From: a virus
Lineage: Duplodnaviria; Heunggongvirae; Uroviricota; Caudoviricetes
Virus record (IMG/VR): IMGVR_UViG_2579778535_000019
Strand: one strand, 5' to 3'
DNA: 3,976 nt
The notes under the pieces: model-generated
Database searches by the model: none
The model's input: only the letters and a program-made list of their open reading frames with translations
What the model was told of the DNA's origin: nothing
Shown: positions 1,241 through 3,976 of the stretch, in pieces
Position numbering within the stretch: position 1 is the first letter of the stretch
How the letters are laid out: each line of letters begins with the position of its first letter
Position numbers and translations under genes: made by a program

Positions 1241-1579
1241 TCAGGATACCGCACCTGCAGCAACACGCCCGATCTCTGCGGTTGCACTCATGACGTAATG
1301 TGACAGTTTCTCTTTTGCCACCTCATTAATCGGTACACATGGCAGACAATGAATCTGTGCCAGAAAACCATCTACCAGCGTTGAATCTTCAGTCAGATCG
1401 GTAAGCAGCCAGATTTCTGGTGCGGTTAATAGATGAGGCTGAGCTGGGTTCAGCTTGTTCCGCAGAATCTGCACATTCATGCCTGCACGTTCTGCCAGTT
1501 GCACCAGATTGTGGCGCAGTGCAAATGCACGACAGGCTTCATCAAAATGTGGATGTTTGGAAACTTGGTAATCAAACAT
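1241..1579 (-). CDS. cII: Phage regulatory protein CII-like (186 CII / CP76 family), apparently C-terminally truncated (112 aa)
   Basis: ORF track 1241..1585 begins at TTG; the likely start is the ATG at 1579-1577, giving [49 protein letters not shown]... with an HTH-like segment. It is the second gene of the operon after the Cox/Apl-like gene, as in phage 186. Phage 186 CII is about 169 aa (established knowledge), so this copy appears shortened. Confidence 0.65.
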
Positions 1580-1611
1580 GGTCAATGCCTCTGATGTATT
1601 TCAGAATCGAA

Positions 1612-1833
1612 CTAATTAAGGTTTAGATTGCATTCTGAAAGCGCATCAACGGTCATGGCTGCTATGTTGATCATCACTTTTTCGCGTTTTTTATCTTTGC
1701 GCAAACGGTGACGGATAAGGCGTCCGTCAGCCAACATGTCATTGATGGTATCGATGGACAGCCCTGTCAGCTCGCTATAGCGCTCAATAGTCACATGAGG
1801 CGTGGTAAGAGTGATTGAAATGTTAGGTCTCAT
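1612..1833 (-). CDS. Cox/Apl-like small DNA-binding protein (excisionase / repressor of the lysogenic promoter), 73 aa
   Basis: ORF track 1612..1833. First gene of the leftward operon, divergent from the repressor gene. Its size and the central segment [28 protein letters not shown] resemble the Cox/Apl winged-helix family, and the position matches cox (P2) / apl (186). Confidence 0.6.
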
Positions 1834-1958
1834 GATGCAACATTCCTCGTTTAATGATGATTAATCAGGACGAATACGGATCGTTTGTATTTTGTGAACA
1901 CCATAAACATACGATCGCACAATGAAATCGTCAAGATAAAAGTTCACTTGGAGTGACC
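1834..1958. promoter_or_regulatory. Lysis-lysogeny switch region between the divergent cox/apl-like and cI-like genes
   Basis: 125 bp AT-rich intergenic region. Contains a direct repeat ATACGGATCG (1874-1883) / ATACGATCG (1908-1916), two GATC sites, and an imperfect inverted repeat around 1888-1912 (GTATTTTGTG ... CATAAACATAC). Confidence 0.5.
1906..1934 (-). promoter_or_regulatory. Candidate sigma70 early lytic promoter (pR/Pe-like) reading leftward toward cox/apl
   Basis: On the minus strand: -35 TTGACG (1934-1929), 17-nt spacer, -10 TATGTT (1911-1906). Predicted start near 1899, giving a leader of about 65 nt before the cox/apl ATG at 1833. The second copy of the ATACGATCG repeat overlaps the -10. 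Confidence 0.4.
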
Positions 1959-2528
1959 ATGAATTTGGAGAAAGGCGGACGAGGCGCTATAGAGCGCATG
2001 GTAGAAGCTTATGGATTCAAAACTCGACAGGCGTTGTGCGATCATTTAGGAATCTCTAAAAGTACACTCGCCACACGCTACATGCGTGACTCATTCCCAG
2101 CAGAATGGGTAATCCAGTGCGCCCTTGAAACGGGCACCTCGCTTAATTGGCTCACAACCGGACATGGTTCAAAGCAAACTTCAGGTAATACAAATACTAT
2201 GGAAGTTGCTAAATATGTATTATCTGATGGTGCCTTGCGTGAAGACGGTTTTTATATTTTTGATAAGGGATTTTTACCCTCTACGTTTAAAAAACCTTTT
2301 GTCATCACAGATAACAATTCTGAATTTATTTGTGATAAAGAATTTGATGATATACGTGATGGTAAATGGGTAATAAGTATTGATGGCGAAGTAACGATCC
2401 GTGACATTACTCGTTTACCCGGTGGAAGAATCTTCGTCGAGGGTGGAAACAGAGCCTTCGAATGTAAGATAGAAGACATTGAAATAATTGGTAAAATTAT
2501 AAGTTTAACAGTCAAGTATGTTAAATAG
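1959..2528 (+). CDS. cI: Phage CI-type repressor (186 CI-like: N-terminal HTH domain plus C-terminal oligomerization domain), 189 aa
   Basis: ORF track 1953..2528 begins at GTG; the likely start is the ATG at 1959 with GGAG 5 nt upstream. The N-terminal segment ERMVEAYGFKTRQALCDHLGISKSTLATRYMRDSFPAEWVIQCALETGTSLNWLTTG fits the 186 CI-type HTH domain. Length is close to 186 CI (192 aa), and the gene is divergent from cox/apl and upstream of int. Confidence 0.8.
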   Translation: MNLEKGGRGAIERMVEAYGFKTRQALCDHLGISKSTLATRYMRDSFPAEWVIQCALETGTSLNWLTTGHGSKQTSGNTNTMEVAKYVLSDGALREDGFYIFDKGFLPSTFKKPFVITDNNSEFICDKEFDDIRDGKWVISIDGEVTIRDITRLPGGRIFVEGGNRAFECKIEDIEIIGKIISLTVKYVK

Positions 2529-2543
2529 TACCGGGAGGAAACT

Positions 2544-2735
2544 ATGCTTGGTAAGGTATTTTTTGTGGTTTTGTCATGTTCTTTGTTATTAAACCCACTA
2601 ACTACCTATGCTAGAAATTATCCCTGCTCAGGGAAAAAGGGAGGTGTTTCTCACTGTACCTCAGATGGCAAATTCGTTTGCAATGATGGAACTATTAGTA
2701 AATCCAAAAAAATCTGTACTAAAAACTCACGATAA
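2544..2735 (+). CDS. Small secreted cysteine-rich protein of unknown function (63 aa precursor; predicted signal peptide, ~40 aa Lys-rich mature part with 4 Cys)
   Basis: ORF track 2544..2735. Strong SD GGGAGG 5 nt before the ATG, 15 nt after the cI stop. N-terminus [23 protein letters not shown] has n/h/c signal-peptide architecture with a T-Y-A cleavage motif; mature part [40 protein letters not shown]. Lies in an AT-rich segment. Confidence 0.5.
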
Positions 2736-2923
2736 CTTTTGCTTTTATATCTGCGTCTAAAATAAAAATGAGCCGCAGGTTAACCGCAAAAGTTACATGC
2801 TCACATAGCAAAAAGAATAGCCAACTTCATTATGGCTTCAGTGAGATGTATGGTCGTAGGATTTCATACATTGACACTGGTTATACATACAGTAAAAATG
2901 CTCTCTACTGGAGGGCATTTTTT

Positions 2924-3976
2924 ATGGCAGTACGAAAACTCACCACAGGGAAATGGCTTTGCGAATGTTACCCCGCCGGACGAAGTGGGCGTCGTGTGCG
3001 TAAACAATTCGCCACCAAAGGCGAAGCTCTGGCTTTTGAGCGTCACACTATGGAAGAAACCGAATCAAAGCCATGGCTGGGCGAATCAGTGGATCGTCGA
3101 ACCCTGAAAGACGTGGTTGAGCTATGGTTCAAACTACATGGTAAATCTCTGACTGCTGGGCAGCATGTCTATGACAAATTGCTGCTGATGGTTGACGCTC
3201 TGGGCAATCCTCTTGCAACCGATCTCACCTCTAAAATGTTTGCCCACTATCGAGATAAACGCCTGACAGGCGAGATCTACTTCAGCGAGAAATGGAAGAA
3301 AGGAGCAAGCCCGGTCACCATTAACCTGGAGCAAAGCTATCTAAGTAGTGTTTTTAGCGAACTATCCCGTCTGGGCGAATGGGCGTATCCGAACCCACTG
3401 GAGAACATGCGAAAATTCACCATCGCAGAAAAAGAGATGGCATGGCTTACCCATGAGCAGATTGTTGAATTACTGGCTGATTGCAAACGTCAGGACCCAA
3501 TTCTAGCACTGGTAGTTAAGATATGCTTAAGCACAGGCGCACGCTGGCGAGAAGCCGTAAATCTTACTCGTTCACAGGTGACCAAATACCGAATTACCTT
3601 TGTAAGAACGAAGGGGAAGAAAAACAGAAGTATCCCTATCAGTAAAGAGCTTTACGAAGAGATCATGGCGCTTGATGGGTTCAATTTCTTCACAGACTGC
3701 TATTTTCAATTTTTATCCGTGATGGAAAAAACGTCTATCGTGCTCCCTCGCGGTCAACTCACACACGTTCTGCGCCATACGTTTGCGGCGCACTTCATGA
3801 TGTCGGGTGGAAACATTCTGGCCTTACAAAAAATTCTCGGACACCACGATATAAAAATGACTATGCGTTACGCACATCTGGCACCGGATCATCTGGAAAC
3901 GGCGCTCCGTTTCAATCCTCTGGCAACGCTGCCAAGTGGCGACAAAGTGGCGGCAGCGGTTGGCATTACCCCGTAA
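2924..3976 (+). CDS. int: Tyrosine site-specific recombinase / phage integrase (P2-type), 350 aa
   Basis: ORF track 2768..3976, but homology-like sequence begins at MAVRKLTTGKWLCECYPAGRSGRRVRKQFATKGEALAFE (ATG at 2924, GGAGGG 7 nt upstream). C-terminal catalytic signature present: ...STGARWREA..., HVLRHTFAAHFMMSGGNILALQKILGHHDIKMTMRYAH with the R, H-x-x-R, H and Y residues. Stop TAA at 3974-3976 is exactly at the window end. Confidence 0.9.
   Translation: MAVRKLTTGKWLCECYPAGRSGRRVRKQFATKGEALAFERHTMEETESKPWLGESVDRRTLKDVVELWFKLHGKSLTAGQHVYDKLLLMVDALGNPLATDLTSKMFAHYRDKRLTGEIYFSEKWKKGASPVTINLEQSYLSSVFSELSRLGEWAYPNPLENMRKFTIAEKEMAWLTHEQIVELLADCKRQDPILALVVKICLSTGARWREAVNLTRSQVTKYRITFVRTKGKKNRSIPISKELYEEIMALDGFNFFTDCYFQFLSVMEKTSIVLPRGQLTHVLRHTFAAHFMMSGGNILALQKILGHHDIKMTMRYAHLAPDHLETALRFNPLATLPSGDKVAAAVGITP

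Follow-up and report, generated by a model that had tools for sequence, protein, structure and literature searches.

What does it mean when the base composition of a phage repressor gene falls abruptly partway along its reading frame? The question is raised by a 3,976-nucleotide (nt) stretch of viral DNA (IMG/VR record IMGVR_UViG_2579778535_000019), hereafter called the window, which is a fragment of a 186-type, P2-like (Peduoviridae) prophage and carries on one strand, in order, a repressor gene cI, a small ydcA-like gene and the integrase gene int. An initial annotation had noticed an AT-rich island that begins inside cI, and had proposed that the repressor is a mosaic whose oligomerization domain was acquired from another lineage together with the adjacent cargo gene. 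We observed that the island consists of four adjacent parts: the cI linker and C-terminal domain (CTD), the YdcA-family gene, a lineage-specific spacer of 128 nt and the conserved leader of int. The explanation in which we place considerable confidence is that of a composite island within a cI-cargo-int lysogeny operon, together with a cI gene that is mosaic for a separate reason. By this explanation, the linker and CTD are low in guanine-plus-cytosine (GC) content throughout the 186-type CI family; an AT-rich accessory gene occupies the slot between cI and int, with a private spacer next to it and an AT-rich int leader closing the island; and an immunity module has been exchanged by homologous recombination against a backbone running from cII, through the CTD and ydcA, to int, with a right-hand crossover at cI codons ~95–105, just past a candidate flanking operator. 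Coordinates of all features are collected in Table 1.

The island itself, which had been placed at about 2160–2940, proved to be real. The GC fraction in 150-nt windows was 0.45–0.49 over positions 1950–2200, 0.29–0.39 over 2150–2950 and 0.47–0.53 after 2900, and a maximum-likelihood two-breakpoint segmentation of positions 1241–3976 located steps at 2168 (support 2134–2253) and 2900 (support 2767–2973), giving segments of GC 0.462, 0.348 and 0.484 with a log-likelihood gain of 17.9 over one segment. Comparison of the island with flanks of equal length gave a chi-square p of 5e-7. The GC figures of the initial annotation were right overall, except that its lower bound of about 20% was too low, the 150-nt minimum being 0.29. 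It was also correct in placing the left breakpoint at the repressor domain boundary: the step at 2168 coincides with the end of the Pfam helix-turn-helix (HTH) domain and lies ahead of the CTD. Within cI, codons 1–70 have a GC fraction of 0.500 and a third-position fraction (GC3) of 0.47, and codons 71–189 have 0.333 and 0.235, respectively (Fisher p = 1e-4 for the second segment against the first). The ydcA-like gene (0.360) and the spacer DNA from 2736 to 2923 (0.367) continue the AT-rich tract up to int (0.487).

The within-gene step had been read as a signature of mosaicism. We compared the window with 32 loci obtained through CI alignment from one-genome-per-species contigs, to which phages 186, PSP3 and two others were added. 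GC was higher in the N-terminal domain (NTD) than in the CTD in 35 of 35 relatives with a full, colinear cI (0.41–0.51 in the HTH part, 0.29–0.44 in the CTD part). The mean drop among the 32 loci tested was 0.106 (Wilcoxon p = 8e-7), the window's 0.167 ranking second, and in 30 of the 32 the CTD also had the lower GC3. The dip is present in phage 186 itself (0.50 to 0.434), which carries no cargo and whose int overlaps the cI stop codon, and in a cargo-less Pantoea prophage (0.507 to 0.418). Colinear relatives with the same internal drop were the outcome that the initial annotation had itself named as refuting its reading of the step; the drop inside cI is a family trait of 186-type CI and not itself a mark of foreign import. 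Since all relatives show it, including the cargo-less ones, the CTD part does not qualify as a horizontally acquired island, and that label applies only to the content of the slot, namely ydcA and the spacer. We also considered that CTD composition might hitchhike with that of the cargo, and rejected this on the lack of correlation between CTD GC and cargo GC (rho 0.22, p 0.22).

That cI is nonetheless a patchwork gene is indicated by separate comparisons of its two halves. Its product is assigned to the 186-type CI repressors (PF07022 plus PF16452) by all family criteria that we tested, and aligned with the 186 CI structures 2FJR (E 3e-31) and 2FKD, the 186 CI CTD (E 3e-14). The divergent switch is also present: an apl/cox-position gene and cII lie on the strand opposite to cI, and int lies downstream of it, as in annotated relatives. 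Profile and structure matches thus bore out the genes named in the initial annotation, a 186-type cI, a gene for a small secreted protein and an integrase gene. Searches with the two halves, however, returned different nearest relatives. The HTH half was 98.6% identical to that of Citrobacter, Kosakonia, Salmonella and Enterobacter CIs, whose CTDs were only 47–57% identical; in a broader set that included Klebsiella, the corresponding ranges were 94–99% and 33–57%. The CTD half, by contrast, was 91–93% identical to that of a set of Escherichia CIs whose HTH halves were only 81–83% identical.

The closest heteroimmune relative was a locus from Escherichia sp. MOD1-EC7003 (L003). Synonymous divergence (dS) against this locus was 1.12 in codons 1–70, 0.61 in codons 71–95 and 0.036 in codons 96–189. 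The step ran in the same direction against E. coli JA0266 (L042; 1.72, then 0.27) and in the opposite direction against enteropathogenic E. coli (EPEC) E2348/69 (L041), where the NTD value was 0.27 and the CTD value 1.22. At the nucleotide level, the window differs from the L003 locus at 7 positions in 1279–1582, at ~243 positions in the 659 nt from 1583 to 2241, and at 16 positions in 2242–3976, with ydcA and int ~99% identical. The recombination junction lies ~75–105 nt past the GC step. The alignments thus identify cI as a recombination mosaic, in which the exchanged unit is an immunity module (apl, the switch region with its operators, the HTH domain and ~25 further codons); cII, the CTD, ydcA and int are backbone shared with L003 and not an imported block. 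Of the initial proposal of a mosaic repressor acquired with its cargo, the mosaicism stood, in that the nearest relatives of the halves differ and dS changes in steps; the joint acquisition did not, as the exchanged block is apl-operators-HTH and the CTD and ydcA are separable. A GC step within a gene, then, cannot be read as a recombination scar without relatives; in this case the real scar is ~100 nt away. With a crossover inside cI after the linker, one oligomerization domain serves at least 2 DNA-binding specificities. The occurrence of one CI oligomerization domain with at least 2 immunity modules in E. coli bears on the origin of new immunity types, and the shared CTD on whether the repressors of co-resident prophages can form mixed oligomers.

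The near identity of HTH domains across genera has, it appears, a different basis. The HTH-coding DNA was only ~76–82% identical to that of the CIs from other genera, with nonsynonymous divergence (dN) of 0.006–0.04 and saturated dS, and no pair in the species-level set combined NTD DNA identity of at least 92% with a divergent CTD. Recent transfer was rejected on the saturated dS and the low DNA identity, and the pattern indicates that the DNA-binding domain and its operators are under strong purifying selection. Separately, we noted a 43-nt patch (2261–2303) with 14 differences from locus L002 in a cI CTD that is otherwise 98% identical; the differences between the window and this locus lie mainly there, and the patch looks like a short gene-conversion tract.

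The switch region (1834–1958) was 89–98% conserved in loci of the same immunity, and unrelated in L003 and L001. It contains a 38-bp inverted repeat, of which the half-site GTTTGTATTTTGTGAAC (at -76 of cI) was conserved in all same-immunity loci. The CI protein of 186 forms a wheel consisting of a heptamer of dimers, and binds to pR and to flanking sites; the window shows candidate operators only. By analogy with 186, the repeat is a candidate CI operator at pR. The flanking sites of 186, FL and FR, are found ~300 bp to either side of pR, FL being inside cI at +269. Within the window's immunity group, an inverted copy of GTTTGTATTTTGTGAAC occurs at +220 of cI, with 0 mismatches in an Enterobacter prophage (L006, 4220–4237), 3 in L005, L037, L039 and L040, and 5 in the window, where a degenerate inverted repeat with the arms TCAGGTAATACA and TGTATTATCTGA is located in the linker-coding DNA. 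We consider this copy a candidate equivalent of the 186 FL operator. A working immunity swap would have to carry the flanking site along, and this may be why the crossover is located just downstream of the candidate FL copy.

Other candidates were set aside. The hexamer TGTATT, considered as a CI half-site, has 4 copies, all within 1595–2221, against 2.1 expected, which is not a significant excess, as 32 of 200 shuffles reached 4; a 12-mer derived from it was not conserved in same-immunity loci and was replaced by the test with the 17-mer pR half-site. Likewise, an FR-equivalent site near 1590–1605 was dropped for lack of conservation among same-immunity loci. At the 3' end of cI, the minus strand (2524–2496) carries a strong match to the promoter consensus, TTAACA-17-TATAAT (11/12), that is antisense to cI and directed into it.

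The second part of the island lies in a region that varies in length and content among relatives. DNA homology to ~30 loci ends at 2131–2183 and resumes at 2861–2868, within a few bases of 2864. The gap between cI and int measures 0 nt in 186, 8 nt in the Pantoea prophage, 369 nt in PSP3 (where it holds a DUF2511 gene), 395 nt in the window and 1.0–3.3 kb in the others (maximum 3286 nt). The cargo is always on the cI strand, has a GC fraction of 0.30–0.41 and begins ~10–60 nt past the cI stop codon. Occupants in relatives include PD-Lambda-1 (DUF4041 plus T5orf172, 3e-120), HEC-01A/B, PDC-S20 KAP NTPases, PDC-M11, PDC-M18, an Old/AriA-like ATPase and a HEPN protein. The cI-int gap is therefore an accessory and defense hotspot with conserved DNA on both sides. 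As a rich cargo and defense slot with sharp flanks, this junction in 186-type prophages of Enterobacterales should be useful in mining for accessory genes.

The occupant in the window is a 63-aa protein that scored 115.8 bits with NF007463 (cut-off 93) and is named 'YdcA family protein' in RefSeq. Over its mature part it shares 57% identity with chromosomal YdcA, and its four Cys residues all align; its N-terminus is hydrophobic and, as read from the sequence, resembles a signal peptide. The Kosakonia homologue carries a precomputed assignment to PF27300; our local copy of Pfam gave no match, and the literature gives no function. When tested as a defense gene, the protein had no PADLOC match at E <= 1e-5. 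Its gene starts 16 nt after the cI stop codon and is preceded by a GGAGG Shine-Dalgarno sequence. Genes for YdcA and a downstream KAP NTPase are found together in JA0266, Citrobacter and Kosakonia, the latter two having CTDs only 59–60% identical to that of the window (codons 96–189); conversely, the EPEC locus has the window's CTD type without ydcA. Since ydcA and the CTD occur apart, cargo and CTD are not a fixed pair. We asked whether the spacer that follows ydcA is what is left of a lost KAP NTPase gene or of some other cargo, and found no similarity; a terminator-like hairpin is present in it on the minus strand (2789–2773).

In the EPEC E2348/69 derivative, the slot holds a second, longer CI-like gene (L041, 4230–5153) adjoining a KAP NTPase gene. 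Such longer CI-like proteins (P0009, P0010, P0019–P0023 and others) are ~290–326 aa in length and combine PF07022 and PF16452 with an extra region of ~100–140 aa, which lies at the N-terminus in most of them and within the protein in P0019 and P0029. The longer CI-like slot protein had no PADLOC match; one possibility is that it acts as a decoy or sensor repressor in partnership with the KAP NTPase.

The right edge of the slot is formed by a 60-nt int leader, which was conserved across ~30 loci that bear cargo and was missing from 186, PSP3 and the cargo-less Pantoea prophage. A scan with the promoter consensus identified TTGACA-17-AAAAAT (10/12) in this leader, both hexamers being conserved, and the spacer between them contains CACTGGTTATACATACAGTA, which matches the LexA consensus TACTGTATATATATACAGTA at 16 of 20 positions (chance expectation 0.002 per shuffled window). 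The CTG-N10-CAG core of this box was kept in 29 of 31 leaders. The leader also folds into a hairpin, with a calculated stability of -15.9 kcal/mol in the window and -8 to -20 in most lineages, every lineage folding with its own complementary extension. Covariation in the core stem was weak (double changes in 2 of 5 pairs, covariation term -0.23); support for the hairpin comes from the per-sequence folds. A search of the island and leader against Rfam gave no family, the only match being a chance one to CRISPR-DR (E 0.95) inside int.

Possibly, the int leader is an insulating regulatory unit that enables 186-type phages to accommodate any cargo in the cI-int slot, a proposal that we offer tentatively and rate at somewhat less than an even chance. 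The hairpin, by sequestering the int Shine-Dalgarno sequence, would block int expression from transcripts that read through from cI and the cargo. The -10 element of the putative LexA-repressed promoter is the 5' arm of the same hairpin, so that transcripts from this promoter would start inside the hairpin and escape it, giving an SOS-triggered burst of integrase for excision. We found no paper that describes an SOS-controlled, hairpin-gated int leader; if true, the scheme would be a testable addition to P2/186 regulation.

Three other accounts of the island must be weighed against a composite island with a separately mosaic cI. A single import, in which a foreign low-GC oligomerization domain and the adjacent cargo arrived together and produced both the mosaic repressor and the island, would fit the loss of homology to most relatives from ~2150–2180 to 2864, the incongruent identities of the 2 domains and the co-inheritance of CTD, ydcA and int with L003 at ~99%. 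It is nevertheless improbable, and the family survey largely refutes it: every relative with a full cI, 186 and the cargo-less prophage included, has the drop, and CTD GC does not follow cargo GC. Moreover, the junction and the GC step do not coincide, the window and its nearest relative differ in a block made up of apl, the operators and the HTH domain, with identical flanks on both sides, and the CTD and ydcA are found separately. An equally improbable account places the cause entirely at the protein level, in that a beta-sheet CTD needs residues with AT-rich codons (Ile, Lys, Asn, Phe, Tyr), and the drop would then be uninformative about evolution or regulation. In its favor, the drop is family-wide, the protein keeps the fold of 186 CI, the CTD has 37% FIKNYM residues where the NTD has 21%, and amino-acid composition alone predicts a fall in GC from 0.52 to 0.42. 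The observed CTD value, however, is 0.333 and not 0.42; GC3 is halved, with 77% of CTD third codon positions being A or T; and the lower GC3 of the CTD recurs in nearly all the loci tested. Of the drop of 0.167 in cI, ~0.10 is accounted for by amino-acid composition and ~0.09 by AT-ending synonymous codons. Also, the protein-level account leaves the cargo and the leader unexplained.

The third account, to which we give a slightly better but still small chance, and which is compatible with the composite island, is that the AT-richness is functional, as an H-NS-type binding domain or as messenger RNA of low structure, and would keep cargo and int expression down in the lysogen. Whatever the cargo, the AT-rich tract runs across the CTD, cargo and leader, synonymous sites in the NTD and CTD appear to be at different equilibria, and the antisense promoter-like site at the end of cI is typical of AT-rich DNA; against this, promoter-like sites are no more frequent than in shuffled sequence (3 found, 3.8 expected).

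Several points also weigh against the composite island and separately mosaic cI that we prefer. The survey comprised one genome per species and a few phages, with the distant HP1/K139 branch left out at the DNA level. The likeliest cause of the family-wide AT bias of the CTD, we infer, is weaker constraint combined with mutation biased toward AT, this being the part of the operon that evolves fastest. Synonymous sites in the NTD are saturated between lineages, yet GC3 there stays at ~0.43, which hints at a regional DNA-level pressure. Finally, ydcA is most likely co-transcribed with cI in the lysogen, since it starts so soon after the cI stop codon with a Shine-Dalgarno sequence of its own; this is argued from spacing only.

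Table 1. Features of the window, with positions numbered from its first nucleotide
Feature	Positions	Strand	Remarks
cI	1959–2528	plus	PF07022 aa 9–72, PF16452 aa 83–181
cI codons 1–70, HTH DNA-binding domain	1959–2168	plus	PF07022 E 2.7e-33; GC 0.50
cI linker and C-terminal oligomerization domain	2169–2528	plus	PF16452 E 5e-29; GC 0.333; left third of the island
Immunity module, replaced relative to L003	1583–2241		apl/cox gene, pR/pL switch region, cI HTH and first ~25 codons beyond
Recombination junction relative to L003	2241–2274		cI codons ~95–105; last dense mismatch 2241, next differences 2274, 2391, 2465
Palindrome (inverted repeat), 38 bp	1879–1916		apl-cI intergenic; candidate CI operator at pR
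Degenerate FL-like flanking-operator candidate	2179–2227		linker-coding DNA; inverted arms TCAGGTAATACA / TGTATTATCTGA
ydcA-like gene, 63 aa	2544–2735	plus	NF007463
Lineage-specific AT-rich spacer, 128 nt	2736–2863		among the fetched loci, matches only the same cassette type (L002, L003, L043)
Conserved int leader	2864–2923	plus	right edge of slot; 60 nt ahead of int ATG
Candidate -35 element TTGACA	2871–2876		int leader
LexA-like box CACTGGTTATACATACAGTA	2875–2894		20-nt palindrome; fills the -35/-10 spacer
Candidate -10 element AAAAAT	2894–2899		AAAAAT/TTAAAT in leaders
Hairpin	2894–2922		3' arm is the int Shine-Dalgarno; T-run, then ATG, in E. coli-type leaders
P2-family tyrosine integrase (int)	2924–3976	plus	PF24624 3.9e-32, PF00589 7e-22; RefSeq annotation in strain L9; GC back to 0.487
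apl/cox-position gene (73-aa open reading frame)	1612–1833	minus	
cII, truncated	1241–1579	minus	PF06892 positions 1–110 of 146, E 1e-37
gpM 3' end		minus	adjoins gpL
gpL	559–1086	minus	PF05926
gpX	356–559	minus	
holin	137–352	minus	

The cassette under study is common. E. coli strain L9 is 100% identical to the window over 1245–3976, its prophage adjoining rcdA-ybjJ. Of 5426 complete E. coli genomes, 592 carry the colinear cI-ydcA-int cassette at a coverage of at least 80%, among them HS (96.9% identity) and derivatives of B (94.7%); the HS copy may lie in DuoHS, a phage described as SOS-inducible (PMC12055606). In cassettes of the L9, HS and B type, a full-length cII has fil and replication genes beyond it, whereas in the window cII is cut at ~codon 112 of 169, and the segment with the gpM 3' end, gpL, gpX and holin directly abuts it at ~1241–1252. 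This segment (1–1252) is 98% identical to P2-like phages of Klebsiella and E. coli, and the junction of gpM' with cII was found, at a coverage of at least 80%, in 0 of the complete E. coli genomes in the collection. Because replication, portal, terminase and capsid genes are absent, the prophage is defective or rearranged.

Two further observations concern relatives. Short contigs from metagenome-assembled genomes labeled 'Bacillota bacterium' (L002, JAEWTL010000113.1) and 'Pseudopedobacter saltans' (L013, QFOI01000672.1) bear enterobacterial 186-type prophage DNA, that of L002 being 98% identical to the window, and their taxon labels are probably due to misbinning or contamination. In Kosakonia, a putative AbiC gene (PF16872) is located just past int (L039, 7298–8134; L038, 7298–8053), in keeping with a minor hotspot that has been published for the interval from int to the att site.

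A slot for morons or defense genes, the exchange of immunity modules and AT-rich accessory DNA are all known biology, and sequenced E. coli often carry this very sequence. As in coliphage 186, CI has 2 domains (aligning to 2FJR over residues 10–183), apl-cII and cI-int diverge from each other, and GC in cI falls from the N- to the C-terminal part. The window's CI is, however, only ~32% identical to that of 186 at the protein level and of a different immunity type, the drop in GC is 0.167 rather than the 0.066 of 186, and where int overlaps the cI stop codon in 186, with neither cargo nor a separate int leader, the window has 395 nt with ydcA and a leader.

An accessory hotspot between cI and the integrase gene has been described for the Vibrio K139-like relatives of P2 (Rousset et al. 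2022, PMC9122126), and only a minor 'integrase-primase' hotspot is listed for P2-like prophages (NAR 2026, PMC13586616). The slot described here resembles the hotspots of P2 relatives in holding variable, AT-rich genes on the same strand between conserved repressor and integrase flanks, and extends to Enterobacterales what was described for Vibrio; it differs in that the occupant in the window is a 63-aa secreted protein of the YdcA family with no defense annotation.

Swaps of the immunity (imm) region are known from lambdoid phages, and recombination has been described within P2-type switch regions. As in the immunity-region exchange of temperate phages, the DNA-binding part of the repressor, the operators and the antagonist gene have been swapped between genomes that are otherwise nearly identical. 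A 2011 survey of 31 phages reported no chimeric regulatory region (PMC3448106). The window departs from known immunity exchange in the location of its right-hand crossover, which is inside the repressor gene, just past the domain linker.

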